Of a DNA stretch of 64,000 bases, positions 2,821 through 31,210 are shown piece after piece. Position 1 is the first letter of the stretch. Each line of letters begins with the position of its first letter. The stretch is from assembly GCA_015063625.1 (NCBI GenBank), contig SVTT01000004.1, forward strand, positions 2,223 to 66,222, in the 5' to 3' direction. The notes beneath the pieces are model-generated. The model was given only the letters and a program-made list of their open reading frames with translations, made no database searches and had not been told where the DNA came from. Position numbers and translations under genes: made by a program. The stretch comes from Oscillospiraceae bacterium (GTDB lineage Bacteria; Bacillota; Clostridia; Oscillospirales; CAG-272).

Positions 2821-3933
2821 TTGATCATCGCACTGGAGAATGCAAAAAGAGATCTTGTGGATATGCGAGCCAAGCTGGTCGACCTTGGCAGTGCCCTGAG
2901 GATCGAGGCGCTTGGTGGCCGCGTGGCAGAGCTGGAGCAAAAGACGGCAGACCCTGCCTTCTGGAGCGACCAGGAGAATTCGTCCAAGGTCCTGCAGGAA
3001 TTAAAGCAAAGCAAGGATACCATTGCAAATTACGAGGCGCTGTGCGCGCGGCTCGAGGATGCCATTGCACTTGCCGAGATTGCCATTGAGGCAGAGGATG
3101 AATCCTGCACGGAGGAGGTCGAGGGCGAGCTTGCCGCCATCCGCGCCGCTGAGGAAACGCAGCGCATGGAGGTGCTTTTGCACGGTGAATACGACCATAA
3201 TAACGCCATCGTTTCCTTTCATCCCGGTGCGGGCGGCACTGAGGCGCAGGACTGGGCGCAGATGCTTTACCGCATGATCACCCGTTGGGCAGAGCGCCAC
3301 AATTTCAAATATAAGCTGGTGGATTGGCTTGACGGCGACGGCGCGGGCATTAAGTCTGCCACCATTATGGTGGAGGGAAATAACGCGTACGGCTATCTCA
3401 AGAGTGAAAACGGCGTGCACCGCCTGGTGCGCGTATCGCCCTTTGATGCCGCAGGCAGAAGACAGACCTCCTTTGCTTCGGTTGAGGTCATGCCCGAGTT
3501 TGCCGATGTCGATAAGGTCGAGGTGCGTGATGAGGATATTGAGGTCACCGCGCATCGCTCCAGCGGCGCCGGCGGTCAGCACATCAATAAGACCGATTCG
3601 GCGATCCGTATTTTGCACAAGCCCACAGGCATCGTGGTCGGCTGTCAGACCGAACGCAGCCAGCTCCAGAACAAGGAAACCGCCATGAAGATGCTGAAGG
3701 CAAAGCTGATGGAGATCAAGCTGCGTGAACGCCTTGATACCATAGAGCAGATCCAGGGTAACAAGGTCAATATTGAGTGGGGCTCGCAGATCCGATCTTA
3801 CGTTTTTATGCCCTATACTCTGGCAAAGGATACGCGGACCGGCTTTGAAAACGGCAATATCGGTGCCGTGATGGACGGCGATATCGACGGCTTTATCAAT
3901 GCCTATCTGAAAATGAACGCCAAGCAATCTTGA
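2821..3933 (+). CDS. prfB: peptide chain release factor 2, uninterrupted (no programmed +1 frameshift), TTG start
   Basis: SPF loop region SPFDAAGRRQTSF, GGQ motif SGAGGQHINKTDSAIR; GGGAGG RBS 7 nt upstream of TTG at 2821; reading frame is continuous through the position where other genomes carry the CUU UGA shift site. Confidence 0.85.
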   Translation: MIIALENAKRDLVDMRAKLVDLGSALRIEALGGRVAELEQKTADPAFWSDQENSSKVLQELKQSKDTIANYEALCARLEDAIALAEIAIEAEDESCTEEVEGELAAIRAAEETQRMEVLLHGEYDHNNAIVSFHPGAGGTEAQDWAQMLYRMITRWAERHNFKYKLVDWLDGDGAGIKSATIMVEGNNAYGYLKSENGVHRLVRVSPFDAAGRRQTSFASVEVMPEFADVDKVEVRDEDIEVTAHRSSGAGGQHINKTDSAIRILHKPTGIVVGCQTERSQLQNKETAMKMLKAKLMEIKLRERLDTIEQIQGNKVNIEWGSQIRSYVFMPYTLAKDTRTGFENGNIGAVMDGDIDGFINAYLKMNAKQS

Positions 3934-10789: not shown

Positions 10790-11117
10790 TCCTTTTTCGC
10801 TTGTTTTTTAACACATTTTCGGGAAGACTCGGAGAATCGCGCATAAAAAAAGTCGCTCCTCTGCCGAAAGCAAGAGGGCGATCGATCTTCGGGTCGCGGT
10901 ACCACCTCTGTTTGTCGTTCCCTTGCGGAAAACGACCTTATGGGCACACGGATGTATGCCACCTCGCGTAACGGGCGATACCGTCACAGCCTACTGGGGA
11001 AGCCCGTTCGGTGTGCAGCTCACGAAGGTATTCGGCAGGACACTCCCACCGCCTTGCACCACCCGGCGGCTCTCTGTGCGGAACGCTCCTGCGTACTTTT
11101 TTCGGTCATAGCCTTTA
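10790..11117 (-). promoter_or_regulatory. T-box riboswitch leader (Tyr) of tyrS, with its own promoter and terminator/antiterminator
   Basis: T-box core AGAGGUGGUACCGCG (minus strand of 10894-10910), terminator hairpin 10853-10880 plus U-run, UAC-containing candidate specifier region, consensus promoter TTGACA-N17-TATACT on the minus strand at 11125-11153. Confidence 0.75.
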
Positions 11118-11200
11118 CCCGAACAGTATAGCACATCTTTCCCGGCTTGTCAAGGGGAATTGTAAAAAAGGGACCGCTGTGGCGATCCCCCGGGGTAAGC

Positions 11201-18514: not shown

Positions 18515-18534
18515 TCCCAAAAACCGCAGTGCGG

Positions 18535-18766
18535 CTTAGCGTGATGTCCTTAACGGACAATCACGCTAAACGATGTTTGCCCTTACGGGCAAGTGATGTC
18601 GGCTTCGCCTTGTGATGTTCACTGCGTGCATGATGTTGTGCCTTCGGCACAGTGGGCAAACATCACGTCACTGCGAGCCTTGGCGAGCAACATCATTATG
18701 AGCGAAGCGAATAACATCACTTTTGCGATAGCAAAAACATCACTAACAGAAAAAGAGAGAACATTT
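18535..18766. repeat. structured intergenic repeat element, copy A (GTGATGTT x3 ... AACATCAC x4 interleaved with short stem-loops)
   Basis: direct 8-mers in the first half, their reverse complements in the second half, tetraloop-type hairpins between; homologous to the 21971-22112 and 27973-28230 copies. Confidence 0.7.
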
Positions 18767-18769
18767 GAT

Positions 18770-18814
18770 ATGCACCCCAAAAGTTAGACACTTTTGGAGG
18801 TGCATATTTTTTAT
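18770..18814 (+). terminator. rho-independent terminator downstream of ispH-rpsA
   Basis: hairpin ATGCACCCCAAAAGT...ACTTTTGGAGGTGCAT followed by ATTTTTTAT. Confidence 0.65.
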
Positions 18815-18949
18815 GGGGAAAACAGGAAGAAAGAGCAGAATATATTTGCCGGAATTTAAGATCGATGTTATAATGGATATGCGAGAACACCGCTTGCCGC
18901 ACTGCGGTTTTTTATGCCGCAGCTTTGTGTATATTTTTTCACAATCCCA

Positions 18950-18979
18950 TTGACAGGTGAAAGGATCTTATGTTATAAT
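18950..18979 (+). promoter_or_regulatory. sigma-A promoter (TTGACA-N18-TATAAT) upstream of the MGS-like gene
   Basis: read directly from the sequence. Confidence 0.45.
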
Positions 18980-19043
18980 AAATCAGAGTATTATCATATA
19001 ATACGAAGCGAAACCCGACAATCGAGGAAGGATGGTGCACGAA

Positions 19044-19472
19044 ATGGAGATCGCAATTGTTGCGGCAGATATGAAAAAAGAATTGATGACACAGTTTTGC
19101 ATTGCATACTGTGGCATTCTCAGCAAGCATAACCTTTGTGCCACCAGCATTACCGCGAAATACATCTCGGAGGCGACCGGCCTGAATATCGAGCGCCTTT
19201 TGGCGGGTGAGCAGGGGGGAGAGCAGCAGATCGCGACGCGCATTGCCTATAACGAGATCGATATTCTGCTCTATTTCCGCGATACCAGCCCCAGCGAGGT
19301 CTATGATGCCGTGGGACAGGAGCTGTTGCTTTCCTGTGACCGCTACAATATTCCCGTCGCCACCAATATCGCGACGGCGGAGGCGCTGATCACGGCGCTT
19401 GACCGCGGCGACCTTGAATGGCGCAACTTCATCAATCCCACCAGCGAGTACAATCGCAAAAAAAGAAGATAA
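19044..19472 (+). CDS. methylglyoxal synthase-like (MGS-like domain) protein with substituted catalytic residues
   Basis: aligns with MgsA along its length (LxATxxT..., GGxQQ, RD, IPVATN); His of the HDKK motif is Ala, GGDQQ is GGEQQ, and the PH(D/E)PD catalytic His motif is absent. Confidence 0.7.
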   Translation: MEIAIVAADMKKELMTQFCIAYCGILSKHNLCATSITAKYISEATGLNIERLLAGEQGGEQQIATRIAYNEIDILLYFRDTSPSEVYDAVGQELLLSCDRYNIPVATNIATAEALITALDRGDLEWRNFINPTSEYNRKKRR

Positions 19473-19499
19473 AAACCGTGGTCGGAACACGCTTGACGG

Positions 19500-19690
19500 T
19501 GTGCCCGTGTACAGAGAGGGGACAGCCTGCTGAAATGTCCCTCATGGGTGCCGTTTGAGTACCGCCCGACTGCTACTGCGTATATGATCGAAAAGTGAAA
19601 CGTTCGGGTGGAACCGTGCGGAGATGATCCACACCCCGAGTGCCTTGCCAGGCGCTCGGGGTGTATTAATATTGAGTTGTTTTTCTAAAA
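19500..19690 (+). promoter_or_regulatory. T-box riboswitch leader (Thr) of thrS
   Basis: T-box core AACGUUCGGGUGGAACCGUGCGG at 19599-19621, ACC-containing candidate specifier region, terminator hairpin 19631-19664 plus T-run before the RBS. Confidence 0.75.
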
Positions 19691-19697
19691 GGAGAAT

Positions 19698-21641
19698 ATG
19701 GATATGTATGAGGTAAGATTTCAAGAAAAGACTGTTGCATTCGAGGCGCCGGTCACGGTATATGACGCTGCCCGTGCCGCGGAGCTTGCAAGCCGTTCTG
19801 TGCTCGCCGCCGAGGTCAACGGCAAAACAGTGGCACTCACCGAGCAGCTTTCGGCGGATACCGACGTGAAGCTGCTGACCTTTGCCGATGCCGCAGGCAA
19901 GCATGTGTTCCACCACACTGCCGCCCACGTGCTGGCACAGGCAGTCAAGCGTCTTTATCCCGACACCAAGCTGACCATCGGTCCTGCAATTGAAAACGGC
20001 TTTTACTATGACTTTGACAGCAGCGTACCCTTTACGCCCGAGGTCCTGTCGGCACTTGAGGGCGAGATGAAAAAGATCGTCAAGGAGAATCTCGTTCTCG
20101 AGCGCTTTGAGCTGCCCCGCGAGGAGGCGCGTTCGCTGATGAGCGAGAAGAACGAGCCCTATAAGGTCCAGCTGATCGATGAGCTGCCCGAGGATGCCGT
20201 GATCAGCTTTTACAGACAGGGCGAGTTTACCGATCTTTGCGCGGGTCCTCACCTGTTCTCCACGGGCGCCATCAAGGCATTCAAGCTGACCCAGTGCACG
20301 GGCGCTTATTGGAAGGGTGACCAGAACAATAAGATGCTTCAGCGCGTATACGGCGTGGCATTCCCCACCAAAGATGAGCTGAAGGCACATTTGGAGGCGC
20401 TGGAGGAGGCGAGAAAACGCGATCACAACAAGATCGGCAGAGAGCTTGAGTATTTCACGACCGTGGAGTCGATCGGTCAGGGGCTGCCCATCCTGCTTCC
20501 CAAGGGCGCACGTGTCATCCAGACCCTGCAACGTTGGATCGAGGACGAGGAGCAAAAGCGCGGCTATCTGCTGACCAAGACCCCTCTGATGGCAAAGCGC
20601 GATCTTTACCGTATTTCGGGTCACTGGGATCACTACCGTGACGGTATGTTCATCCTCGGAGATGCCGATGATGAAGCCAAGGAGTGCTTTGCGCTTCGCC
20701 CCATGACCTGCCCCTTCCAGTATCAGGTATTCCTCAATAAAAAGCGCTCCTATCGCGATCTTCCCATGCGCCTTGGCGAAACCTCCACGCTCTTCCGCAA
20801 CGAGGACAGTGGCGAGATGCACGGTCTGATCCGCGTGCGCCAGTTCACCATTTCCGAGGGGCATCTGATCCTGCGCCCCGAGCAGCTGGAGGAGGAGTTC
20901 CGCGGCTGCCTGGAGCTTGCCAAATACGTTCTCGATACCGTCGGCATGCTCGAAAACTGCTCATTCCGCTTCTCGCAGTGGGATCCTGCACGCGCAGGCA
21001 TCAAGTACGAGGGCACGGCGGAGCAGTGGGAGCACGCGCAGTCGGTCATGAAGGATATTCTCGATCACTTGGGCTTGGAGTATGAGGTCGGCATCGATGA
21101 GGCGGCATTCTACGGCCCTAAGCTTGATATCCAGTATAAGAACGTGTTCGGCAAGGAGGATACCATCGTTACCATCCAGATCGATATGCTGCTGGCGCAG
21201 AAGTTTGGCATGGAATACGTGGATTCCGACGGTCAGATGAAGACGCCTTATATCATTCACCGCACCTCGCTTGGCTGCTACGAGCGCACACTTGCCTATC
21301 TGATCGAGCGCTATGCGGGCGCGCTCCCCACGTGGATGGCACCCGTACAGGCAAAGCTCCTGCCCATCGGTGACGAGCATATCGATTATGCCTACGAGGT
21401 CAAGAGGCGGCTGGAGGCGGCGGGGCTGCGCGTTGAGGTCGATGACCGCAACGAAACCATCGGCAAGAAGATCCGTACCACGCAGCTTGAAAAAGTCCCT
21501 TATATGCTGGTCGTCGGCGACAATGAGATGAATGCGGGCGCGGTTGCCGTCCGTTCCCGTAAGGAGGGCGATCAGGGCGCGGTCAGCGTTGACGAATTTC
21601 TTGAAAAGATCCTCGTTGAGGTTGCGGAAAAGAGAAGATGA
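19698..21641 (+). CDS. thrS: threonine--tRNA ligase
   Basis: TGS + editing + class II core + anticodon-binding architecture; motifs FRNEDSGEMHGLIRVRQF and GPKLD. Confidence 0.9.
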   Translation: MDMYEVRFQEKTVAFEAPVTVYDAARAAELASRSVLAAEVNGKTVALTEQLSADTDVKLLTFADAAGKHVFHHTAAHVLAQAVKRLYPDTKLTIGPAIENGFYYDFDSSVPFTPEVLSALEGEMKKIVKENLVLERFELPREEARSLMSEKNEPYKVQLIDELPEDAVISFYRQGEFTDLCAGPHLFSTGAIKAFKLTQCTGAYWKGDQNNKMLQRVYGVAFPTKDELKAHLEALEEARKRDHNKIGRELEYFTTVESIGQGLPILLPKGARVIQTLQRWIEDEEQKRGYLLTKTPLMAKRDLYRISGHWDHYRDGMFILGDADDEAKECFALRPMTCPFQYQVFLNKKRSYRDLPMRLGETSTLFRNEDSGEMHGLIRVRQFTISEGHLILRPEQLEEEFRGCLELAKYVLDTVGMLENCSFRFSQWDPARAGIKYEGTAEQWEHAQSVMKDILDHLGLEYEVGIDEAAFYGPKLDIQYKNVFGKEDTIVTIQIDMLLAQKFGMEYVDSDGQMKTPYIIHRTSLGCYERTLAYLIERYAGALPTWMAPVQAKLLPIGDEHIDYAYEVKRRLEAAGLRVEVDDRNETIGKKIRTTQLEKVPYMLVVGDNEMNAGAVAVRSRKEGDQGAVSVDEFLEKILVEVAEKRR

Positions 21642-21662
21642 CACCTTGCAGCAAGGCAAGAG

Positions 21663-21700
21663 GGGAGGCTCCTTTCGGAGCCTCCCCCATTTTTGTGTTT
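21663..21700 (+). terminator. rho-independent terminator after thrS
   Basis: GGGGAGGCTCC-TTTC-GGAGCCTCCCC then ATTTTTGTGTTTT. Confidence 0.7.
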
Positions 21701-21970
21701 TCTGCTCCTATGACCGATCTTTGGTGCTTTTTTGGAAAAACATTCGAATCGCACCTCAAAAATTGGAATATTTTAATCAATAATTGGAAAGTAAGACGTC
21801 TTTGAGCCTTATGCGGGAAAGAGAAAAAAGAAAAGGAGCTCCTGTGGATACCTACCGTAAAGCAGTTTTTTATCAATATCAAAAGGGACGAGGTTTTCTC
21901 GTCCCTTTTGCACACTTCCTTGCCTGCAAGGTATAGTGTGTTATACCGTATTATCTTTTCGGGCGGTAAA

Positions 21971-22112
21971 AGAGTGATGTTTTTGCTTGCGCAAAAGTGA
22001 TGTTACTCGCTTCGCTCATAGTGATGTTGCGCCCGTCGGTCGCGGTGATGTGATGTTTGCCCATTGCGCCGTCAGGCGTAACATCACTTGCCCGCAAGGG
22101 CAAACATCGCTC
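21971..22112. repeat. structured intergenic repeat element, copy B (inverted, partial relative to copy A)
   Basis: GTGATGTT x4-5 then AACATCAC; reverse complement of copy A matches B segment by segment (e.g. GTGATGTTTTTGCTTGCGCAAAAGTGATGTTACTCGCTTCGCTCATAGTGATGTT). Confidence 0.65.
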
Positions 22113-22172
22113 GGCGTACCTGCTTTATCGCAGGTCGCCGTGTGGAGTCCCTTTTCTCTTTTCACGAATCGT

Positions 22173-23834
22173 TTACTTCACGTCGATCACGGATTCATCC
22201 CACATCTCGGGCGCTTCAAAGCCGAGCAGGTTGACCATGGTGGCGGCGACGTTGGAAAGTCCGAAACTACCCTCGTCCTTCTTCACTGTGTAAGCGTTCT
22301 TTGCGGGGGTGTTGTCATAGATGATGCAGGGAACGGGATTGAGGGTGTGGCTGGTCTTTGCCTTGAAGTTGCCGTTCTTGTCCGCCTTGGGACCCTTGGT
22401 CTTCTTGTCGATCTCGTACATTTCGTCGGCGTTGCCGTGGTCTGCGGTGATCAGAGCTACACCGCCGAGGCGGTCGATGACGGGCAGAATGCGACCGAGC
22501 TGGAGGTCAAGCGCCTCCATCGAGCAACGGGTAGCGGCAAGGGAGCCGGTGTGTCCCACCATATCGCCGTTGGGGAAGTTGACGCGCAGATAGCGGTACT
22601 TGCCGCTTTCAAGACACTCGATCAGCTTGTCGGTGATCTCGGCGCACTTCATCCAGGGGCGCTGCTCAAAGGGAACGACGTCGGAGGGAATCTCGATATA
22701 GGTCTCAAGCTCCTCGGAGAACTTGCCGGATTTGTTGCCGTTCCAGAAGTAGGTCACGTGACCGTATTTTTGGGTTTCGGAGATGGCAAGCTGGGGAATG
22801 CCCATGTCGGCAAGATATTCGCTCATGGTGTTGGTGATCTCGGGGGGAGAAACCAGATACTTTTTCGGAATGTGCAGATCGCCGTCATATTCAAGCATGC
22901 CTGCGTAAACGACCTCGGGAACGCGCACGCGGTCAAATTTGTCAAATTCCTCGCCGCCGTCAAACGCCTTGGAGATCTCGATCGAACGGTCACCGCGGAA
23001 GTTGAAGAAGATCACGCTGTCGCCGTCCTCGACTGTGCCGAGGGGCTTTCCGTCGCGCGCGATGACGAAGGGGGGGAGATCCTGGTCGATCACATGGTAT
23101 TCGTTGCGGTATGCCTTGACCGCCTCTGCGGCAGAGGCGAACTGACGTCCCTCGCCGAGCACGTGAGTTTTCCAGCCCAGCTCTACCATGCCCCAGTTTG
23201 CTTCATAGCGGTCCATGGTGATGCACATGCGGCCGCCGCCACTGGCAATCGCAACGTCAAAGGAGGCATCGCGGAGCTCGGCAAGGAATGCCTCGAACGG
23301 ATCAATGTATTCGAGCGCCGAGGTCTCGCCCACATCGCGACCGTCAATGAGGACATGGATGCGTACGCGCGCCACGCCCTCCTTCTTTGCCTGCCTTACC
23401 ATTGCCTTCAGATGGTCGATGTGCGAGTGCACGTTTCCATCCGAGAAAAGACCGAGGAAGTGAAGCGTGCCCGCAGTCGCCTTCACGTTGCCGATCAGCT
23501 CCTGCCAGGTGCCGCTGGCAAACATTTTGCCGGATTCGATCGAATTGGAAACCAGCTTTGCACCCTGCGCAAAGACCTGACCTGCACCGAGGGCGTTGTG
23601 ACCGACCTCGGAGTTACCCATGTCGTCGTCGGAGGGGAGGCCGACTGCCGTGCCGTGTGCCTTGAGTGCCACGGTGGGGTAGGTTTTCATCAGCATGTCA
23701 AGCACGGGGGTGTAGGCGGTGGTCACGGCGTTGCCCACAGTGTCGGGAGCAATGCCCACACCGTCCATCACGATGGTCAGAACGGGACCCTTGATGCCAC
23801 CAAAGCTTTTGAGAGAGTTGAGCTTTTTATTCAT
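22173..23834 (-). CDS. gpmI: 2,3-bisphosphoglycerate-independent phosphoglycerate mutase
   Basis: iPGM signature (SDGNVHSHIDHL, metal-binding Asp/His set, C-terminal ADHGNADEM); start at MNKKLNSL with AAGGAGA RBS. Confidence 0.9.
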   Translation of the reverse strand: MNKKLNSLKSFGGIKGPVLTIVMDGVGIAPDTVGNAVTTAYTPVLDMLMKTYPTVALKAHGTAVGLPSDDDMGNSEVGHNALGAGQVFAQGAKLVSNSIESGKMFASGTWQELIGNVKATAGTLHFLGLFSDGNVHSHIDHLKAMVRQAKKEGVARVRIHVLIDGRDVGETSALEYIDPFEAFLAELRDASFDVAIASGGGRMCITMDRYEANWGMVELGWKTHVLGEGRQFASAAEAVKAYRNEYHVIDQDLPPFVIARDGKPLGTVEDGDSVIFFNFRGDRSIEISKAFDGGEEFDKFDRVRVPEVVYAGMLEYDGDLHIPKKYLVSPPEITNTMSEYLADMGIPQLAISETQKYGHVTYFWNGNKSGKFSEELETYIEIPSDVVPFEQRPWMKCAEITDKLIECLESGKYRYLRVNFPNGDMVGHTGSLAATRCSMEALDLQLGRILPVIDRLGGVALITADHGNADEMYEIDKKTKGPKADKNGNFKAKTSHTLNPVPCIIYDNTPAKNAYTVKKDEGSFGLSNVAATMVNLLGFEAPEMWDESVIDVK

Positions 23835-23907
23835 AATATCTCCTTGTTTGTCGGCGCGGCACTTGCCAAAACGCCGTTCCTGTGTTATACTTTTAAAGAA
23901 ATCGGAC

Positions 23908-25140
23908 TTATTTGCGTGCTGCGCTGACCAGCGCCTCGGTGTCACGTGCGATCACCAGCTCCTCGTTGGTGGGGATGAGGTAGACTGCCACCTTGGAGTC
24001 GTCGGTGGAAAGCTTGACGATGTTGGATTGACGCAGCATCTTGGCGTTGAGCTCCTTGTTGATCTTGATGCCGAAGTAATCCATGTCCTCGCATACGATC
24101 TCGCGCAGATGGGGGTTGTTCTCGCCGATGCCTGCGGTAAAGACGACGGCGTCAAGGCCGTTCATCTCGGCGGTGTAGGCACCGATATATTTTTTGATCT
24201 GCAGCTTGAGGATGTTGACCGCAAGGTTGGATTGCTCGTAGTGGGGATTGGAGGGACCCTCGCCGATTGCCTTTTCGAGGTCGCGCGAGTCGGAGGAATA
24301 GCCCTCGGTCACGCCAAGGAAGCCCGACTTTTTGTTCATCAGCTGGTTGACGCCCTCGGTGGTGAGGTTCAGCTTTTCCATCATGAAGGGAACGATCGCG
24401 GGGTCGATGTCGCCGCAACGCGTGCCCATTTCCACACCTGCAAGGGGGGTAAAGCCCATCGAGGTGTCCATCACCTTGCCGTCCTTGACAGCCGAGATCG
24501 ATGAGCCGTTGCCGATATGACAGGTCACGATCTTGGTGCCCTCGGTGCGACCGAGGATCCTTGCCATCTCACCCGCCACAAAACGGTGGGAGGTGCCGTG
24601 TGCGCCGTAGCGGCGAACGCCGTAATCGCGGTAAAGCTCGTAGGGAAGCGCATACATGAATGCCTCGGGTGCCATGGTCTGATGGAAGGCGGTGTCAAAT
24701 ACCAGTACCTGCGGCTTGTCGGGCATGACGGCAAGGCAACCCTCAATTCCCTGGATGTGAGCAGGGGTGTGGAGGGGAGCAAAATCGTGGCAAAGGCGCA
24801 GCTTTTCAAGCACCTCGTCGGTCAGCAGAACCGACTCGGAGAAGAAGGCGCCGCCGTGCACCACGCGGTGCCCCACAGCCTCGATCTCGTCCATGCTGGC
24901 GATGCAACCGTAGGTGCTGTCAAGCAGCTTTTCCACGACAAGCTTCATGGCATCGGCATGGTTCTTGAGGGGGCGTGCCTCCTCGCATTTCAGATTTTTC
25001 AGAAGGTGCTTGTGCTCAATGGCAGAGCCCTCGGTTCCGATACGCTCGCAGATGCCCTTGGCAAAAACGGTTTCGGTGTTGGTATCAAAAAGTTGGTATT
25101 TGAGGGAGCTTGATCCCGCATTGACGACCAGTACGTTCAT
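23908..25140 (-). CDS. ackA: acetate kinase
   Basis: N-terminus MNVLVVNAGSSSLKYQLF, HRVVHGG, VTCHIGNGSS, AHGTSH motifs. Confidence 0.9.
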   Translation of the reverse strand: MNVLVVNAGSSSLKYQLFDTNTETVFAKGICERIGTEGSAIEHKHLLKNLKCEEARPLKNHADAMKLVVEKLLDSTYGCIASMDEIEAVGHRVVHGGAFFSESVLLTDEVLEKLRLCHDFAPLHTPAHIQGIEGCLAVMPDKPQVLVFDTAFHQTMAPEAFMYALPYELYRDYGVRRYGAHGTSHRFVAGEMARILGRTEGTKIVTCHIGNGSSISAVKDGKVMDTSMGFTPLAGVEMGTRCGDIDPAIVPFMMEKLNLTTEGVNQLMNKKSGFLGVTEGYSSDSRDLEKAIGEGPSNPHYEQSNLAVNILKLQIKKYIGAYTAEMNGLDAVVFTAGIGENNPHLREIVCEDMDYFGIKINKELNAKMLRQSNIVKLSTDDSKVAVYLIPTNEELVIARDTEALVSAARK

Positions 25141-25261
25141 ATAAGTCCTCCGTGGTTTAATATATCGCCTATCAGTATAACATAACTTTCCGTTGTTTTC
25201 AATCACTTGTCCCGAAAAAAGGGAAATTTTTCCCCTGCTTGGGGAAAAGAGGAGTCAGATC

Positions 25262-26428
25262 ATGAAGCACGTTGGTATTATTTGTGAATACAACCCGATC
25301 CATACGGGACACGCGCATTTGCTGCGCGAGGTCAGGAATGCCGAGACCGTCATTTGCGTAATGAGCGGTAACTTCACTCAGCGCGGCGAGGCGGCGATCC
25401 TGCCACCTGTGGTTCGCGCGGCAATGGCGGTCGAGGCAGGCGCCGACCTTGTGCTGGAGCTTCCCTTTCCCTTTTCGGCATCCTCGGCGCGCTATTTTGC
25501 CACGGCAGGTGTGCGCGCGCTGGCAGGCGTGGGAGCAGACCATATTGCCTTTGGCAGCGAAAGCGGTGATCTTGCAATGCTTCGGGATCTGGCGGAGCGC
25601 GTGCCGGAGCACGGTGCTCTGGCAGCATCCCCGGAAAAGGGCAGTGCCTCTGCGTATTTCACGGCGCTCGGAGCCGCACTTTCCTCCAACGACATTCTTG
25701 CGGTCGAGTATCTTGCGGCGATCGCGCGCGAGAAGCTTGCCCTTGTGCCCCTTGCCGTGCGCCGTACAGGCGCGGCATACCGCGATACGGTGGCTGAAAA
25801 TGGCGCGTTCCCCTCGGCAAGCGCACTGCGGGCACGCTTGGAGGCGGGAGAGGATGTGAGAGGGGATATGCCCCCTGCCGCCGCACGCGTATTTGAGGAG
25901 GCTCTTTCCCGATATCCCATCGCACGTACCGAGAAATTGGGGGATGCTATGCTGGCGCTTTTGAGGAGAGGGGCGACCGATCATCTGACGGGCAGGGAGA
26001 ACGGAAGCTTTCTTGATGTTGCCGATTGCGGTGGCGGCTTGCTGAGGCGGCTGCAAAAGGCGGCGCTGGTTTCGGGGGACTACGAATCGCTTTGCCGTGC
26101 GGCGGCAACCAAGCGCTATACCGACGGACGTATCCGCCGTGCCTTGCTTTATCTCCTTTCGGGCGTCACCGAGGCGGATCTCGCGGCGCCTCCCGCCTAC
26201 CTGCGGTTGCTTGCCATGAACAGCAGGGGCAGAAAATTTCTTGCAATGACCGAAAAAACACGCACCGTTCCCGTGGTAACCAAGCAAAGTGAGATCGCGG
26301 CGAATATAAGCGCAACGCGTGCGCGTGCGCTGGCGCTTGTCGCCGACGGACTTTATTCCATCTGCCTTGACGGCAGTCTGCTTCCCCACGAGCTTCAGAC
26401 CGCCAAGCCCTATTTTTCCTGCCTTTGA
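25262..26428 (+). CDS. tmcAL: nucleotidyltransferase-family protein, probable tRNA(Met) cytidine acetate ligase
   Basis: HIGH-like nucleotidyltransferase N-terminus (GIICEYNPIHTGHAHLL) and YlbM/TmcAL-like length and layout. Confidence 0.7.
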   Translation: MKHVGIICEYNPIHTGHAHLLREVRNAETVICVMSGNFTQRGEAAILPPVVRAAMAVEAGADLVLELPFPFSASSARYFATAGVRALAGVGADHIAFGSESGDLAMLRDLAERVPEHGALAASPEKGSASAYFTALGAALSSNDILAVEYLAAIAREKLALVPLAVRRTGAAYRDTVAENGAFPSASALRARLEAGEDVRGDMPPAAARVFEEALSRYPIARTEKLGDAMLALLRRGATDHLTGRENGSFLDVADCGGGLLRRLQKAALVSGDYESLCRAAATKRYTDGRIRRALLYLLSGVTEADLAAPPAYLRLLAMNSRGRKFLAMTEKTRTVPVVTKQSEIAANISATRARALALVADGLYSICLDGSLLPHELQTAKPYFSCL

Positions 26429-26438
26429 GAATTGTTCT

Positions 26439-26466
26439 TGACTTTTTTAAAAAAGCGTGCTATACT
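26439..26466 (+). promoter_or_regulatory. sigma-A promoter (TTGACT-N16-TATACT) upstream of the 26505 ORF
   Basis: read directly from the sequence. Confidence 0.4.
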
Positions 26467-26504
26467 ACAATTTGTGGAAATCTATATCATAAGGAGGCGT
26501 TACG

Positions 26505-26807
26505 ATGGCTGATACGAGAAAAAAAGTAGAAGGCGAATATCTGCAGTATCAGGGAAAGCCCCTGGTGCGAGAGGAAAATACAATCATTTACGGTGATCTC
26601 AATCACGACCCCTGCGTGCTTGCACTGGAGATCATGTCCTACCGTGAGGACGGCGGAGAGAAGGTCCCCTCCAAGGTCCTGATCCAGATCCTTGACGCCA
26701 AGGATCCCAACAAGATCATCAAGCAGGGCAATAAGGATAGCCTGCATGATGCGTTTGCGCTCGGTACGACCTGGCTTGATCTCGAGCTGAAGAAAAATGC
26801 CCGTTGA
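26505..26807 (+). CDS. small hypothetical protein (100 aa)
   Basis: AAGGAGG RBS 7 nt upstream of ATG; no family assigned. Confidence 0.5.
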   Translation: MADTRKKVEGEYLQYQGKPLVREENTIIYGDLNHDPCVLALEIMSYREDGGEKVPSKVLIQILDAKDPNKIIKQGNKDSLHDAFALGTTWLDLELKKNAR

Positions 26808-26814
26808 TCGACCC

Positions 26815-26858
26815 AAAAAAGCAAAGAAGGACGAGAGATCGTCCTTCTTTGCTTTTTA
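26815..26858. terminator. bidirectional terminator (A-run, 12-bp stem, T-run)
   Basis: GCAAAGAAGGAC...GTCCTTCTTTGC stem flanked by AAAAA and TTTTT. Confidence 0.65.
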
Positions 26859-27131
26859 AAGATACAGAAAAATCAAAGCTGCCAGCGCGGCGTGCAGCAG
26901 AAGTCCAAGCAGATTCACGGCGTGAAAATACCAGTGCTTGGTCTTATGGCGGAACAACTGCATCGCAGCGATGCCGCCAAGCGCACCGCCGAAAAAGGAA
27001 AGGGAGAGGAGAACACGCTCGGGTATACGCCATGCCCCCCGCTTTGCCTTGCTCTTATCTGCGCCGTAAAAGATAAAGGTGATCAGGCTCATCACCAGAA
27101 TCGCGCAGGGATAGATCACGCGCAGATTCAT
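26856..27131 (-). CDS. DUF1294-like small membrane protein
   Basis: about 90 aa, two TM helices, KRGAWRIPE motif characteristic of DUF1294. Confidence 0.55.
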   Translation of the reverse strand: MNLRVIYPCAILVMSLITFIFYGADKSKAKRGAWRIPERVLLSLSFFGGALGGIAAMQLFRHKTKHWYFHAVNLLGLLLHAALAALIFLYL

Positions 27132-27340
27132 TTTTTGGAGTAATCCTGCTTGCGGATCTTGCCATCCTTTTTGTGGATGACGAAATTGCCGTCCTGATTT
27201 TCGGCGATGGTTTCGGCGTAGGCGATCGCCTCGACCTGCGTGTTAAACAGCTTGAGTGCTTTGGCTGCCTTTTCTGCCTTGACCTGCCATTTGCCGTCCT
27301 CGTTGAGGGATACGTGATAGGTTTTTCCTGCTGCTGCCAT
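27128..27340 (-). CDS. small DUF2188-like protein
   Basis: 70-aa KW/G-rich sequence (YHVSLNEDGKWQVKAEKAAKALKLFNTQVEAIAYA) resembling DUF2188; ATGA overlap with the upstream gene. Confidence 0.45.
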   Translation of the reverse strand: MAAAGKTYHVSLNEDGKWQVKAEKAAKALKLFNTQVEAIAYAETIAENQDGNFVIHKKDGKIRKQDYSKK

Positions 27341-27491
27341 GAGAAGCTCTCCTTTCGGTGTGTGAGATTTGTCCGATCACTTCAATTATAAAGCGAATTT
27401 CGGCAAAAAGCAACAATTTTTTATGAAAATGTGGAGAAAAAGTATAGCGCGGATGAAACGAAAAAACGCCAAAAATTTTTTCAAAAACCTA

Positions 27492-27520
27492 TTGACATCA
27501 GAGAACCTTTGTGCTAAAAT
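27492..27520 (+). promoter_or_regulatory. consensus sigma-A promoter (TTGACA-N17-TAAAAT) for the tRNA-Pro/tRNA-Leu pair
   Basis: read directly; TSS predicted about 10 nt upstream of tRNA-Pro. Confidence 0.6.
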
Positions 27521-27537
27521 GTATGAGTCGCTGATAT

Positions 27538-27613
27538 CTGGGTGTGGCGCAGTTGGTAGCGCGCTACCTTGGGGTGGTAGAGGCCGCACGTTCAAGTCGT
27601 GTCACTCAGACCA
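27538..27613 (+). tRNA. tRNA-Pro (anticodon GGG)
   Basis: hand-folded cloverleaf: 7-bp acceptor stem (one G-U), D stem GCGC/GCGC, anticodon stem CTACC/GGTAG with loop TTGGGGT, T-loop TTCAAGT, encoded CCA. Confidence 0.8.
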
Positions 27614-27700
27614 GCGGGTATGGCGGAATTGGCAGACGCGCTAGATTCAGGTTCTAGTGGGGGCAACTTCGTGGAGGTTCAAGTCCTCTTACCCGCACCA
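27614..27700 (+). tRNA. tRNA-Leu (anticodon CAG), long variable arm
   Basis: GCGGGTA...TACCCGC acceptor stem, anticodon loop TTCAGGT, long variable arm, encoded CCA; close match to canonical tRNA-Leu(CAG). Confidence 0.85.
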
Positions 27701-27742
27701 AAGCAAAAGGGACGTCCCGAATGGGGCGTCCCTTTTGCTTTG
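27699..27742 (+). terminator. long perfect hairpin immediately after tRNA-Leu (terminator or processing structure, no U-run)
   Basis: 16-bp perfect stem CAAAGCAAAAGGGACG...CGTCCCTTTTGCTTTG. Confidence 0.45.
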
Positions 27743-27923
27743 GTGCGGTGGAGGTTCGAAGAACCTCCGCCGAGTTTTCGTCTTTGCGCTTAATATTTCT
27801 CGTGGGGGGAAAATTATCTGTTACAGCACACGCGGCTTTCGATGGAACGCTTTTCGTAACGCGCAAAGTGCAGGCGTTTAGCCTGCAAGAAACACTCTTG
27901 TCGTGGCGGAACGCCACGTGGTT

Positions 27924-27952
27924 GGAGAGTTCAAGTCCTCTTACCCGCACCA
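27924..27952 (+). repeat. 29-nt direct repeat of the tRNA-Leu 3' end (T-arm + acceptor + CCA), att-like fragment
   Basis: GGAGAGTTCAAGTCCTCTTACCCGCACCA versus tRNA-Leu 3' end GGAGGTTCAAGTCCTCTTACCCGCACCA; no 5' half present. Confidence 0.7.
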
Positions 27953-27972
27953 TAAAAAAAGCAGCTCGTGGG

Positions 27973-28230
27973 TTAGCGTGTTATCCTTAACGGAGAACAC
28001 GCTAAAACTAGGTTTGCCCTTTGGGCAAGTGAAGTTATCTGCGATAGTGAAGTTTACTTTGCAAGTGAAGTTTCGCCTATGGCGAAGTGATGGGCAAACT
28101 TAACTTCACTTGTGCGTAGCACAAACTTCACTGCGTAGCAACTTCACTTTCGCGTCAGCGAAAACTTCACCAACAGAAAAAGAGAGAACATTTCGGCTAT
28201 AAACCGATTTGTTATCTCTTTCTGTTGTTA
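27973..28230. repeat. structured intergenic repeat element, copy C (GTGAAGTT x3 ... AACTTCAC x4 variant)
   Basis: same architecture and flanking modules as copy A (TTAGCGTG..CCTTAACGG..CACGCTAAAC, GTTTGCCCTT.GGGCAAG, AACAGAAAAAGAGAGAACATTT); both the 8-mer and its complement carry the same single-base change. Confidence 0.7.
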
Positions 28231-28285
28231 TAAGGGTTTGGGCTTAGCCCATTTGCGTTTGACTAGTCAAATGCGATGCTCGCTC

Positions 28286-28612
28286 TTAATAGTGCTTTTC
28301 AAATTCTCCGCTAAGAAGATCACCCATTTTCTCACGGGCTGTTTTTTGTTTGCAAAACGCTCCGGCAAGATCCTTGGTAACCATTACCTTGCGACACCGG
28401 GTGTAATGCAGATAGATATTTGACGTTGTGCACGTCGATCGGGCGTAGCTCATCACCTTTTCCTCTCGATACGCATATGTGAGCTCATAGCCGACTCCGA
28501 TTTGCCAACGATATGTAACGATCAAGTAGCTGATATCCTTGCGGATTTCAAAAAACAGAAAAGCGCCTTGCAGACCGATGCTTCCCTCAAGGCTTAGCCA
28601 AGGCGATCTCAC
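28286..28612 (-). pseudogene. lower-GC ORF (108 aa) of unknown function next to the tRNA att-like fragment; possible remnant of an integrated element
   Basis: GC content of 28.26-28.70 kb is visibly lower (about 48%) than surroundings; no start context or family recognisable. Confidence 0.3.
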
Positions 28613-28770
28613 GCAGGCTTGACCGTCCCCTTTGCAAAAACAGCCCGTGCCTTGTGCCCGTATCCTATGCTTTGAAAATGAAATTGTTGAACTTTGTCGT
28701 TTTATCTATACAAATTCCGATTTTTGTGCTATAATGGCGTTGCCCGATATTTTGAATCTGTGGGAGTAGC

Positions 28771-29562
28771 ATGATGAAGGAGTTTTTTGGTTGGGGCGGA
28801 TACAGCCGAGATGCAGAGGGCTTTTTGTCGTGGCAGCATCTTCTTTTCGTTACCGGTCTGATGGCGGTCATGGTGGCGCTTGCCGTGCTTGTGGGGCGAC
28901 GGAGCCGAACGAAGGATGACCGACAAAAGAACCGTGTGCTGATGGTCGCGGCGATCCTGATCGATTCGATCGAGCTGTTCAAGATCGTGTTTCTCTGCCT
29001 GAGGTCGCAGGATGCGATGACGTGGCTCTACGAGCTGCCGCTGTTTTTGTGCAGCATCCAGCTGATCGCCATTCCGATCGCGGCGTTCTCGAAGGGAAGG
29101 ATCAAGCAGGCTGCGTTGGATTTCGTTTTGATCTTCGGTATCCTGGGTGCAATTTTGGGGACCTACGGAGCAGGGAATAATTACGGATCGTATCCCGTGC
29201 TCTGCTTTGATAACGTTGTGTCGGGAATGACCCACTCGATTTCTGGCTTTTGCTCACTGTACATCGCTGTTTCCGGTATGGTGAGCATGAAAAAGAAGAA
29301 CATTCCCGTCACGTTTGCGATCCTGCTTGCCTTCTGCGCCTCTGCGACCGTTGCGAATCTGCTGCTTGATTACAATTACATGTTCCTGGTACGCGGAGAC
29401 GGAACGCCCTATGACATTCTTTATGGGCTGGTAGGCGGACATCCCGTTCTCTATCCCATCGGTGTGATCCTGCTGTTCGTCTTTTACATTTTGACCTTCT
29501 ACGGTGTGTGTTTTTTGATACGAGCCGAACGCGCAAGGCGGTCGGCGGATATTGAGGCTTGA
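28771..29562 (+). CDS. integral membrane protein (possibly YwaF/TIGR02206-type)
   Basis: 7-8 predicted TM helices; ATGATG start downstream of a TATAAT box. Confidence 0.5.
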   Translation: MMKEFFGWGGYSRDAEGFLSWQHLLFVTGLMAVMVALAVLVGRRSRTKDDRQKNRVLMVAAILIDSIELFKIVFLCLRSQDAMTWLYELPLFLCSIQLIAIPIAAFSKGRIKQAALDFVLIFGILGAILGTYGAGNNYGSYPVLCFDNVVSGMTHSISGFCSLYIAVSGMVSMKKKNIPVTFAILLAFCASATVANLLLDYNYMFLVRGDGTPYDILYGLVGGHPVLYPIGVILLFVFYILTFYGVCFLIRAERARRSADIEA

Positions 29563-29729
29563 TGCTGCAAATGCAGGCACGGGAGCTGCGCCCCACAAGG
29601 GCGCGGCTCCTGTGTCCTTTGTCAAGCTCCTTGCTTGTGATAGCCCTTGTCGTGCTGTGAGCGTGCCTTGCGAGGCGCTTACATGTGTTATGAGCAGTTC
29701 GGGCGATCTGATAAAAATTTCAGAATGAG

Positions 29730-29758
29730 TTGACAACGGGGTCGAACGGGGGTATAAT
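29730..29758 (+). promoter_or_regulatory. consensus sigma-A promoter (TTGACA-N17-TATAAT) for the MATE transporter gene
   Basis: read directly from the sequence. Confidence 0.55.
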
Positions 29759-29836
29759 GCAGGCAAGAATGACTGCTCTGCTGAGAAAAAATTTCGTTTT
29801 TTCGAGGGGCAGGATAGAGAAAGGGTGGATAATGGT

Positions 29837-31210
29837 ATGAGAATTGGCAGGAAAGCCGATCTTGACATGACCGAAGGACCTTTTTTGAAGAAGATTCTCA
29901 TCTTCATCATTCCCGTCTGCCTGACGCATGTTCTGCAAAACCTGTATCATGCAGCAGACCTCGCCGTGATCGGACGCTTTCGCGGGGATGCCGCGCTCGC
30001 CGCGATCGGTAGCGTGGCATCCCTCAACGCCATGATCATCTCACTCTTTATGGGACTTTCCTCTGGTGCGGGCATTGTGGTGGCACAGGCGATCGGTGCC
30101 AGACGTGGGGAGCGTGTCAGTCGCGTTCTGCACACTGCGGTCCTGATGGCAGCCCTCCTTGGCGTCATGGTGGGTGGCACCTGCTTTGCGGTTGCCCCCG
30201 CGTTTTTGCGATGGATCGAGGTGCCGGCAAATATCTTTGACCAAGCGCTTCTTTACATACGCATCATTTTTTGCGGTTTTCCCGTTTCCATGGTCTATAA
30301 TTACGCTGCTTCCATGGTGCGCGCTACGGGTGATTCCACGCATCCGCTGATGTTTTTGACCATTTCGGGTGTGACCAACGTGCTTTTCAATCTTTTGATG
30401 GTTCTGTCGTTCGGTATGGGAGTAGAGGGCGTTGCCATCGCAACAGTGGTATCCCAGGCACTGTCGGCGACCCTGATGATCGCCTTTCTTGTGCGGCAAA
30501 AGGGGGATATGCATTTGTCCCTTCGCAGGCTTGCGCTTGACGGGGCGGCTGCCAAGGATATCCTTTATATCGGTGTGCCGCTTGGGATTCAAAATACCCT
30601 CTTCAACTTTGCCAACGTGCTGGTGCAGTCTGCCGTCAACCGCTTCGGTGACGTTGCCATTGCGGCAAAAACGGCAGCGGGCAATCTTGAGAACTTCGTC
30701 TACGTGGCGATCGGCTCGGTCAATCAGGGTGCGATCACCTTTGTGGGGCAGAACGTCGGTGCCGGCAAGAAGGAGAATATCAAGCGCATCACGTTCAGCT
30801 GCCTTACGCTCGGTCTTGTGATCGCCTCGGTCGGCGCGCTGGCGCTTCTCCTCTTCCGATCCTTCTTCGTAGGGCTCTACGTGGATAACCCCGCGGTTGC
30901 CGAGATCGCCTATCGCAAGCTTTTTCTGACTATGCCACTGTATCCTCTGGTTGCCGTGATGGAGATCCTGAACAGTGAGCTTCGCAGCATGGGTAAATCG
31001 ATCACTGCCATGTGTATTTCGTTGTTTGCGGCCTGTGCCGTTCGCATCTTCTGGGTCGAGGTGATGGTGAGCCTCTATCCCAGCATCGATATGGTGTTCC
31101 TTGCCCATCCCGCCTCTTTCATCGTCGGCTTTGTCGCCAACGTGAGTATTTTTATTCTGACCTTCCGCCGCTTCTGCGGCAAAAAAAGTGAGGTCGCCGA
31201 GCCGGGATGA
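29837..31210 (+). CDS. MATE-family multidrug/oligosaccharidyl-lipid efflux transporter
   Basis: 12-TM MATE architecture with conserved glycine- and aromatic-rich helices; alternative in-frame starts at 29825 (GTG) and 29867. Confidence 0.85.
   Translation: MRIGRKADLDMTEGPFLKKILIFIIPVCLTHVLQNLYHAADLAVIGRFRGDAALAAIGSVASLNAMIISLFMGLSSGAGIVVAQAIGARRGERVSRVLHTAVLMAALLGVMVGGTCFAVAPAFLRWIEVPANIFDQALLYIRIIFCGFPVSMVYNYAASMVRATGDSTHPLMFLTISGVTNVLFNLLMVLSFGMGVEGVAIATVVSQALSATLMIAFLVRQKGDMHLSLRRLALDGAAAKDILYIGVPLGIQNTLFNFANVLVQSAVNRFGDVAIAAKTAAGNLENFVYVAIGSVNQGAITFVGQNVGAGKKENIKRITFSCLTLGLVIASVGALALLLFRSFFVGLYVDNPAVAEIAYRKLFLTMPLYPLVAVMEILNSELRSMGKSITAMCISLFAACAVRIFWVEVMVSLYPSIDMVFLAHPASFIVGFVANVSIFILTFRRFCGKKSEVAEPG

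Follow-up and report, generated by a model that had tools for sequence, protein, structure and literature searches.

The three intergenic repeats in this window (the whole 64,000-nucleotide stretch analysed) belong to a family that we regard as probably mobile: a MITE-like, non-autonomous repeat of gut Clostridia, ~357 bp long, non-coding, strongly self-folding, and usually lodged in the apical loops of terminators. A pattern scan of gut Clostridia genome bins found the repeat at >117 sites, and a profile search returned 137 matches, 59 of them full length, from at least 83 genome assemblies, so that the family is now documented across uncultured gut Clostridia. It is conserved across several Clostridia families, with a length of ~345–390 nt (typically ~357 nt) and a low copy number per genome (1–5 among the matches listed); bins holding several copies include JAFVXI, JAFTOZ and JAZLCY.

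A profile built from the family and searched across the window recovered only three copies, A, B and C (Table 1), at the places where the first-pass annotation had put them. The 8-mers it assigned to them are likewise borne out: GTGATGTT occurs nine times in the window, always within copies A and B (shuffled sequences averaged 1.8 and never reached nine), and seven of the ten occurrences of GTGAAGTT lie within copy C (shuffled mean 1.65). The proposal of a family of structured intergenic repeats is supported. Its boundaries, however, were wrong. The unit had been taken to end at AACAGAAAAAGAGAGAACATTT, after ~230 nt, a motif found in the window exactly twice (18745 and 28172), whereas the conserved unit spans ~357 nt; ending the feature at 28230 shortened copy C, which reaches ~28329, by ~100 nt.

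Table 1. Coordinates of the three repeat copies and their parts in the window.
Copy	Feature	Positions	Strand	Remarks
A	host terminator, 5′ half	18518–18535	+	A-run then CCGCAGTGCGGC; exact reverse complement of 18896–18913
A	element, ATG subfamily, 360-nt insert	18536–18895	+	profile match 18536–18771, model positions 1–226
A	hairpins	H0 18537–18568; H1 18575–18592	+	
A	direct 8-mers	18593–18600, 18612–18619, 18630–18637	+	first GTGATGTC; third ATGATGTT
A	inverted 8-mers	18659–18666, 18689–18696, 18713–18720, 18736–18743	+	second AACATCAT
A	purine box	18745–18766	+	
A	divergent 3′ domain	18767–18895	+	
A	host terminator, 3′ half	18896–18913	+	GCCGCACTGCGG then T-run
B	element, ATG subfamily, internal fragment	21972–22110	−	model positions 35–200
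C	host terminator, 5′ half	27954–27972	+	A-run then GCAGCTCGTGGG
C	element, AAG subfamily, full length	27973–28329	+	profile match 27974–28328, 388 bits
C	hairpins	H0 27974–28005; H1 28015–28028	+	
C	direct 8-mers	L1 28029–28036; L2 28047–28054; L3 28065–28072	+	
C	centre	28087–28101	+	GTGATGGGCAAACTT
C	inverted 8-mers	R1 28102–28109; R2 28124–28131; R3 28140–28147; R4 28163–28170	+	
C	tail hairpin	28171–28227	+	
C	small hairpin	28239–28251	+	
C	palindrome	28255–28274	+	
C	conserved 3′ box	28301–28328	+	
C	host terminator, 3′ half	28331–28347	+	CTCACGGGCTG then T-run

Position within host terminators

A perfect stem, its sequence particular to the locus, encloses copy A and likewise copy C; an A-run borders it on one flank and a T-run on the other, which puts both copies within the apical loops of intrinsic terminators. 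In copy C, the 5′ half of this terminator lies immediately 3′ of a duplicated tRNA-Leu 3′ end, and its duplex with the 3′ half (−26.6 kcal/mol) is present in the folds of both strands. In copy A, the 5′ half follows directly on the ispH-rpsA stop at 18514, the halves pair in both the MFE and centroid folds, and the insert is bounded by AAAAAACCGCAGTGCGGC and its exact complement GCCGCACTGCGGTTTTTT; given these paired halves and a 360-nt insert with a divergent 3′ domain, we rejected the view of copy A as a truncated element. On one side of copy B, which lacks a closing stem, is the gpmI stop (22173), and on the other the terminator common to thrS and gpmI. The closing stem is absent from the first-pass annotation, as is the relationship to the Rfam family Gut-1 described below.

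The same arrangement recurs through the family. The flanks of 40 of 54 full copies form a duplex below −15 kcal/mol, compared with 10 of 54 when one flank is taken from another locus; the mean duplex is 15 bp, with the A:T pairs of the runs counted, and mostly 0–4 nt separate the stem from the element. A T-run is present in 33 of 39 flanks and an A-run plus a T-run in 30 of 39, and since these 30 are bidirectional, the orientation of the element relative to a unidirectional terminator is uninformative. Judged by their sequence, the flanks alone would make an intrinsic terminator: at a gene 3′ end, a GC-rich stem and then a T-run. Copies lie between convergent (35), tandem sense (17), tandem antisense (8) and divergent (2) genes. 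The association with highly expressed genes claimed earlier gives way to one with intrinsic terminators at the 3′ end of any gene; among 159 flanking ORFs no family recurs (the largest homologous cluster has three members).

Fold and covariation of the 8-mer arrays

We counted 8-mer states and base pairs in 108 aligned copies. All seven 8-mer sites carry AAG in 56 of these copies and ATG in 28, and ~3 copies mix A and T. This all-or-none swap in 84 of the 108 supports the direct and inverted 8-mers as pairing partners, as the first-pass annotation had proposed. A concerted change over seven or eight sites is unusually clean for a multi-helix fold. A second compensatory change is position-specific, with ATGATGTT at L3 accompanied by AACATCAT at R2 (L3:R2 counts: GC 66, AT 29, GT 4, AC 3), while any other R site would give 27–30 A·C mismatches, which supports the nested pairing L1:R4, L2:R3, L3:R2. 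In one copy (L114) the identical variant pair is shifted to L2/R3.

The nested fold pairs 91.9% of cells, compared with 38–45% in slid controls, and its covariation score (0.203 vs. 0.085 in shuffles, reached by 0 of 500) comes from copies that are not independent, since most covariation stems from a few subfamily-level events. RNAalifold found compensatory changes in 19 of 55 pairs and, together with the pair counts, favours this fold and with it the multi-branched structure suggested earlier; the hairpins between the 8-mers covary too. The register L1:R3, L2:R2, L3:R1 was rejected, as its L3 helix is 90.3% paired vs. 98.5% for the nested L3:R2. The plus strand has a folding-energy z-score of −11.7 and the minus strand one of −9.2, and wobble asymmetry (G·T 167 vs. 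A·C 128) was too weak to assign the strand that folds. A competing helix, in which the linker plus the 5′ half of H1 pairs with the central GGGCAAAC(T/A)T, covaries as well and can coexist with the nested fold only as a pseudoknot. Finally, the 8-mers are much more conserved than the hairpin stems, and neighbouring stems vary freely; this excess conservation is beyond what pairing alone explains.

Full-length copies usually occupy the apical loops of intrinsic, mostly bidirectional terminators at gene 3′ ends, and we propose that the element folds when single-stranded, most likely as RNA read through from the adjoining gene while the terminator's 3′ half is still to be made, with single-stranded DNA during mobilisation as a possible alternative form. 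The predicted fold would start with the two 5′ hairpins, H0 and H1; next, the three direct 8-mers would pair in nested register with all of the four inverted ones but the first, a small hairpin jutting from each junction to give a stack of four-way junctions, followed by a long purine/pyrimidine hairpin and then by a hairpin domain at the 3′ end. So compact a fold would bring the split terminator halves together, and termination would thus survive at low cost to the host. The 8-mer is uniform within an element, presumably because every direct repeat has to stay complementary to the inverted one it pairs with, and probably also because the helix sequence is recognised by some factor. It differs between subfamilies that are probably ancient, namely AAG, ATG, and the ATA of the Gut-1 relatives.

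Dispersal and coding capacity

Copies in the same genome that are 95–99% identical (some pairs 97–99%) have unrelated flanks, and the AAG and ATG subfamilies occur together in at least six genomes. Decayed fragments (e.g., copy B) and copies broken by other repeats are common, and no large insert was seen in split copies among the profile matches. The ends of the element resemble an imperfect terminal inverted repeat, in which AGCGTGAT on the left matches the reverse complement of AGGGTGAT on the right at 7 of 8 positions (18 of 25 over 25 nt), and the left repeat doubles as one strand of hairpin H0. Most copies are flanked by TT..TT, and 6 of 8 AT-type copies by AT..AT; as this pattern tracks element lineage, these nucleotides could belong to the element instead of being a target-site duplication.

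ORFs inside the element are not conserved, and their frames differ from copy to copy. We rejected a protein gene at copy C, where a 108-aa ORF (28286–28612, minus strand) and the other surrounding ORFs (28286–29910) have no Pfam match; in other loci, conservation of these ORFs ends after ~10 codons and the frames differ. Gene callers currently mis-annotate the element as small ORFs, and its copies can break or chimerise metagenome assemblies. Clustering of 750 ORFs within 8 kb of 117 loci yielded no recurrent transposase or other protein family near the element. A phage or plasmid origin was also rejected, with no blastn match in plasmid or phage collections and no pattern match in viral contigs. 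Searches for empty sites gave none: the exact reconstructed hairpin of copy C had 0 matches in the metagenome scan, and relatives were too divergent or non-syntenic, with relatives of ThrS (65–77% identity) leading to 80 loci that lack the element and are non-syntenic, and loci found through relatives of YwaF (78–81% identity) non-syntenic too. All strains with an identical YwaF carry copy C.

Relatives and rival explanations

Both arms of copy C and the left arm of copy A match the Rfam Gut-1 model (RF01706) at E ~1e-5. The Rfam search suggested by the first-pass annotation found matches on both arms, but at scores (33.5, 36.8 and 34.1 bits) below the 50-bit gathering threshold; a scan of the window at that threshold returned no Gut-1, only a T-box and two tRNAs. 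ROOL, GOLLD, HEARO, group I and group II models gave no matches in the regions searched, even at E up to 10. In both families a GC hairpin leads into small variable hairpins split by a repeated GUGAnnU(U) spacer, and three hairpins with the GUGAnnU spacer align over positions 1–77 in both arms. They differ in that the 8-mers here are GUGAAGUU and GUGAUGUU, whereas Gut-1 has GUGAAAU or GUGAUAU, and in that the Rfam model covers one arm, ~77 nt of a ~357-nt element. Gut-1 seed sequences contain a third variant, GUGAUAUU three times and then AAUAUCAC four times, within their own closing stem. Weinberg et al. 2010 (PMC2864571) described Gut-1 as a human-gut-only small-RNA candidate, with palindromic architecture, terminators and mobility unmentioned, and we found no follow-up in the literature searched. 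Rather than standing alone as a small RNA, Gut-1 appears to form one arm of a larger palindromic mobile element, which reinterprets this orphan Rfam family.

Like MITEs, the element is small and non-coding (~345–390 nt, no Pfam match), with multiple copies that have unrelated flanks and near-identical ones in one genome; a related autonomous IS with matching ends was found neither in the 8 kb around 117 loci nor in plasmid and phage collections. The first-pass annotation had held that an IS or MITE lacking a conserved fold would count against it; the MITE-type mobile appearance is there, but so is the conserved fold. BOX-type repeats share the element's modular build, in which complementary ends enclose repeated internal units, boxA-(boxB)n-boxC; like the element described here, their copies can be truncated or nested, and they are co-transcribed with adjoining genes, as the element would be, but no sequence relationship was apparent, and the internal repeat here is an 8-mer that pairs long-range with an inverted array. 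Pneumococcal BOX, RUP and SPRITE elements are also short, non-coding, multi-copy, intergenic and strongly self-folding (reviewed in PMC10969869), whereas the element here has a specific insertion site, the apical loop of a terminator hairpin, and no known parent IS. Passages of that 2024 MITE review on terminators, hairpins and palindromes describe no element targeting terminator loops. REP, BIME and REPIN sequences are likewise palindromic and extragenic: their units alternate in orientation, each hairpin has a short conserved motif beside it, and they are often found between convergent genes and at the 3′ ends of genes. Their hairpin, however, is the repeated unit, whereas here each hairpin differs and only the 8-mer recurs; we found no single palindromic unit with a 5′ GTAG motif, no RAYT gene nearby and no recurrent neighbour, and copies number in units vs. 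hundreds. IS1397 and ISKpn1 insert into REP loops and class C group II introns adjoin terminators, in the latter case inserting after the terminator and not within its loop; all are autonomous, with a transposase or reverse transcriptase of their own. The resemblance would lie in a hairpin or terminator structure guiding insertion in place of primary sequence, and the difference lies in the 357-bp size of the present element and its lack of coding capacity.

It is unlikely, in our view, that the family is instead a host-selected functional RNA domain, a Gut-1-type structured RNA of 3′ UTRs spread by selection and not by selfish mobility, which might shield mRNA from 3′ exonucleases, act by binding or titrating a protein, or give rise to a stable small RNA by processing. 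Strong structural covariation, very low folding energies and conservation in several Clostridia families would suit such a domain, as would the classification of Gut-1 as a likely non-coding RNA (PMC2864571) and a constant position at gene 3′ ends inside the terminator, where the element would be co-transcribed. Yet between tandem genes it occurs both sense (17) and antisense (8), it has no preferred neighbour gene, folds about equally well from the two strands and has ends that resemble terminal inverted repeats, and its near-identical copies at unrelated sites within one genome and common decayed or interrupted copies count against such a domain too. Somewhat more doubtful still is that the 8-mers are double-stranded DNA sites for a sequence-specific protein (transposase, recombinase or nucleoid protein), arrayed directly on the left and inverted on the right, much as Tn7- or Mu-type transposons carry several binding sites at their ends. 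The complementarity of the arms would then follow trivially from their inverted orientation, and a subfamily switch would mirror co-evolution with the protein. A nearly invariant 8-mer beside freely varying stems, the joint switch of seven sites, three to four left and four right sites, and apparent inverted repeats at the ends all agree with this. Such a model predicts neither the change in position 1 of L3 that is mirrored at position 8 of R2 alone nor the swap seen in L114, and covariation of the hairpins between sites indicates that single-strand folding is under selection; moreover, no recurrent candidate protein gene lies near the copies, and both subfamilies share at least six genomes. 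Protein recognition is in any case compatible with pairing, as a protein could recognise the L:R helices.

Against a mobile element count the missing empty site and autonomous partner and the ambiguous target-site duplication. On the mobile-repeat reading that we prefer, the steady terminator-loop position suggests either structure-guided insertion or strong selection for insertions that keep termination. A bolder version seems improbable to us: that the element is of a mobile kind not recognised before, which targets structure and enters terminator loops as folded single-stranded DNA or RNA, and that its ladder of four-way junctions, made of identical 8-bp helices, is the recognition code of a trans-acting, subfamily-specific enzyme, in which case the AAG, ATG, ATA and AAA variants would be distinct specificity classes.

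Copies in the window and extent of the family

The first-pass annotation had described three copies (A, B and C) of a repeat carrying direct and inverted 8-mers, and reading of the regions together with counts of the 8-mers and the 22-mer bore this out. Within the 64-kb window, GTGATGTT occurs nine times, always in copy A or B (shuffles: mean 1.8, never nine), GTGAAGTT occurs 10 times, seven of them in copy C, and the 22-mer AACAGAAAAAGAGAGAACATTT exactly twice; the family profile gives exactly three matches, copies A, B and C. The observation is genuine and extends further than first described: the proposed end of the unit was wrong, and conservation across aligned loci continues for ~135 nt beyond it.

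Scanning one genome per species for the 5′ module CACGCTAAA..TTTGCCC..GGGCAAGTGA found >117 sites among the matches listed, nearly all of them in genome bins from uncultured Clostridia of ruminant and other animal guts (Oscillospiraceae, Acutalibacteraceae, Christensenellaceae, Ruminococcus and Faecousia). An nhmmer search with copy C as query returned 137 hits among loci of the matches listed, 59 of which span model positions 2-356 and are full-length copies of ~345-390 nt. The consensus begins with hairpin H0 (TTAGCGTG...CACGCTAA), a linker, and hairpin H1 (TTTGCCC-loop-GGGCAA), followed by three direct 8-mers (L1-L3), each with a small hairpin, the centre GTGATGGGCAAACTT, and four inverted 8-mers (R1-R4) with three small hairpins, one between each successive pair. 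Next comes a long purine/pyrimidine hairpin, with the previously noted 22-mer as its 5′ strand, then two further hairpins, one being the palindrome GCATTTGACTAGTCAAATGC, and a conserved 3′ box ending in CATCACCCATT.

The expanded left arm at locus L016 indicates that the unit of 8-mer and hairpin can amplify. Within the AAG subfamily, a third lineage (rows L101, L046, L072, L075, L109, L058, L037 and L103 of alignment A1) differs in its tail hairpin (GAGAGTTAATGGCT..CCGTTAACTCTC) and 3′ palindrome (GCATTTGTTTAACAAATGC), which argues for modular evolution of the 3′ domain. Hypothetical ORFs of 63-108 aa, called automatically inside elements in the window, L001 and L202, have no Pfam hit and no conservation. 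The 108-aa ORF in the window was rejected as a gene, as conservation elsewhere ends after a few codons and the frames differ.

Coordinates of element copies and associated features (window positions unless a locus is named)
Feature	Position	Strand	Description
Copy A	18536-18771		Profile match
Copy A closing stem, 5′ half	18518-18535		AAAAAACCGCAGTGCGGC
Copy A closing stem, 3′ half	18896-18913		GCCGCACTGCGGTTTTTT, exact complement of AAAAAACCGCAGTGCGGC
Copy A 3′-domain hairpin	18768-18807		Long hairpin GATATGCACCCCAAAAGT...ACTTTTGGAGGTGCATAT, then T-run
Faecousia genome-bin element, L057	~2454	and reverse	Same hairpin at equivalent place
Copy B	22110-21972	minus	Profile match, model positions 35-200 only
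Hairpin adjoining copy B	22114-22140	minus	GGCGACCTGCGATAAAGCAGGT(A)CGCC
Copy C	27974-28328		Profile match
ORF, window	28286-28612	minus	108 aa
ORF, L001	8122-8313
ORF, L202	2013-2339
Expanded left arm, L016	~3170-3500	minus	At least 5 tandem units of GTGATGTT + GCCT(T/G)CGGCA
Metagenome contig L205	1-1702		Homology to window starts at 27973
tRNA-Leu(CAG), last 24 nt	27677-27700		GTTCAAGTCCTCTTACCCGCACCA
Exact repeat of tRNA-Leu end	27929-27952		GTTCAAGTCCTCTTACCCGCACCA
T-box leader	10871-11118	minus	Rfam 114 bits

Pairing of the 8-mers and the fold

The 8-mer variant defines two subfamilies, ATG (copies A and B) and AAG (copy C). The first-pass annotation had claimed that the two arms pair with compensatory change, naming uncorrelated changes as evidence against this. 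Among the matches listed, 108 copies aligned to the model were scored at seven clear sites: 56 are AAG throughout, 28 are ATG throughout, only about three are mixed A/T, and the remainder have isolated uncompensated point changes or gaps. The linker's degenerate 8-mer copy changes along with the subfamily (ACTAAGTT vs ACGATGTT). A second substitution, in the ATG subfamily (L3 ATGATGTT, R2 AACATCAT), is informative because it is position-specific: among the matches listed, L3 position 1 and R2 position 8 form GC 66, AT 29, GT 4 and AC 3, with 27-30 A.C mismatches when L3 position 1 is set against R1, R3 or R4, and in L114 the variant pair has moved to L2 and R3. These counts and the swap match what a putative nested register, L1:R4, L2:R3, L3:R2, would predict.

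RNAalifold on the full-length copies recovers the nested helices, H0, H1, several small hairpins and the tail hairpin, with compensatory changes in 19 of 55 predicted pairs. The complete proposed structure pairs in 91.9% of cells (38-45% with partners slid by 1-3 columns), and the L3 helix is 98.5% paired in the nested register vs 90.3% in an alternative one. The covariation score is 0.203 vs 0.085 in shuffles, none of 500 being as high; a few subfamily-level events among related sequences account for most of the covariation. Small hairpins covary freely, one pair in hairpin hp1 being AU 25, GC 16 and UA 5 and its neighbour UA 26, CG 10, AU 9 and GC 3. The predicted folding energy of copy C plus flanks is −163.5 kcal/mol (z = −11.7) for the plus strand and −147.9 kcal/mol (z = −9.2) for the minus strand, and the closing stem forms in both. 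The weak wobble asymmetry (G.T 167, A.C 128) discriminates neither RNA from single-stranded DNA nor one strand from the other. A conserved 11-bp helix between the linker plus H1 5′ strand and the central GGGCAAAC(T/A)T competes with this arrangement; it would exclude the nested fold unless a pseudoknot forms.

Terminator setting and dispersal

The 10-13 nt directly 5′ and directly 3′ of the element are mutual reverse complements, different in sequence at each locus, mostly 0-4 nt from the element and enclosed between an A-run and a T-run (both present in 30 of 39 flanks among the matches listed). Flank duplexes fall below −15 kcal/mol in 40/54 full-length copies among the matches listed vs 10/54 with the 3′ flank of another locus (means −19.7 vs −10.2 kcal/mol). 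The halves are AAAAAAAGCAGCTCGTGGG (5′) and CTCACGGGCTGTTTTTT (3′) in copy C. Exact stem halves also enclose copy A, giving an insert of 360 nt in which other hairpins replace the 3′ third of the element; its reading as a truncated copy was rejected. Copy B is an internal fragment without a closing stem. Crude gene calls place 35 copies among the matches listed between convergent genes, 17 between tandem genes in sense, 8 in antisense and 2 between divergent genes. Taken together, stems, runs and gene context place the element within the apical loop of predicted intrinsic terminators, most of them bidirectional, at gene 3′ ends, in either orientation; the preference for highly expressed genes suggested at first was not found.

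The 3′-domain hairpin of copy A, shared with L057, is either a second 3′-domain variant or a separate small repeat family. The hairpin adjoining copy B also adjoins a truncated copy in another genome (L017); it may be an additional mobile hairpin or a scar of recombination.

Copies occur in at least 83 genome assemblies, with both subfamilies together in at least six genomes. Same-subfamily copies within a genome reach 95-99% identity (two L072 copies, 99%; L084/L053/L045, 97%), with unrelated flanks, each in its own terminator; others are truncated, internally deleted, expanded or split by another small repeat. The element ends are imperfect inverted repeats (AGCGTGAT vs the right-end reverse complement, 7/8; longer span, 18/25), and the flanking dinucleotides, TT..TT or AT..AT, which correlate with element lineage, might be a 2-bp target duplication. 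Such features form, on sequence grounds, the signature of a putative MITE-like non-autonomous mobile repeat. Among the matches listed, the 159 ORFs flanking copies contain no recurrent family (largest cluster, 3 members), and no protein family beyond common ones recurs within 8 kb. Plasmid, phage and viral-contig collections gave no match to the element. No empty site was found in an exact-pattern metagenome scan for copy C or in related genomes, which were not syntenic; the insertion event itself is thus inferred rather than observed.

We consider it somewhat probable that the family is a non-autonomous mobile repeat sitting in terminator loops. Its self-folding architecture would close the loop like a zip, so that the split terminator could still form, and the 8-mers, paired in nested order, would build a stack of four-way junctions. 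The fold and the position at gene 3′ ends also suit a 3′ UTR RNA domain selected by the host, a reading we hold unlikely; copies lie in either orientation. Pairing accounts for neither the conservation of the 8-mers far above that of the hairpin stems nor the identity of all helices. That the 8-mers are double-stranded DNA binding sites for a putative protein is compatible with pairing, and we rate it slightly less likely still.

A different repeat of ~45-80 nt, GGGGTTCCCCGAAGCGAAG.ATGAGCTTTGGGGG, lies in or beside copies in L025, L026, L028 and L049 and is absent from the window. In L205, homology to the window has the first base of copy C as its exact starting point. The left flank consists of an unrelated terminator half, and the element departs from copy C over its left two-thirds; recombination of one copy with another or a chimeric assembly at the repeat would account for this.

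Relation to Gut-1 and neighbouring features

The Rfam search proposed in the first-pass annotation gave a single signal for the element, Gut-1 (RF01706), which matches the direct arm on the plus strand and the inverted arm on the minus strand with scores of 33.5-36.8 bits, below the threshold of 50; the window elements are thus Gut-1 relatives, not members by the Rfam criterion. The 2010 report (PMC2864571) lists Gut-1 as a candidate non-coding RNA from human gut metagenomes only, without further comment, and our search found no later paper on it. Sequence flanking the published seed alignment carries GUGAUAUU three times, then AAUAUCAC and close copies four times; it also has a linker/centre pair that matches and a closing stem particular to each locus. 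Thus the same architecture, with a different 8-mer, is already present in the Gut-1 seeds, and Gut-1 itself seems to correspond to one arm of an element of this kind. The competing linker/centre helix also recurs in these relatives, with different sequence. In function, the element most resembles REP/BIME elements on the one hand and, on the other, bacterial MITEs and structured repeats of which pneumococcal BOX is an example; a keyword search of a 2024 review of prokaryotic MITEs (PMC10969869) found none described as targeting terminator loops.

Directly 5′ of copy C, the end of tRNA-Leu(CAG) is repeated ~250 nt downstream, with two terminator-like hairpins in the spacer; the duplication looks like an att-type scar of an integrative element or a tRNA gene remnant. 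The T-box leader is ordinary and not connected with the element.
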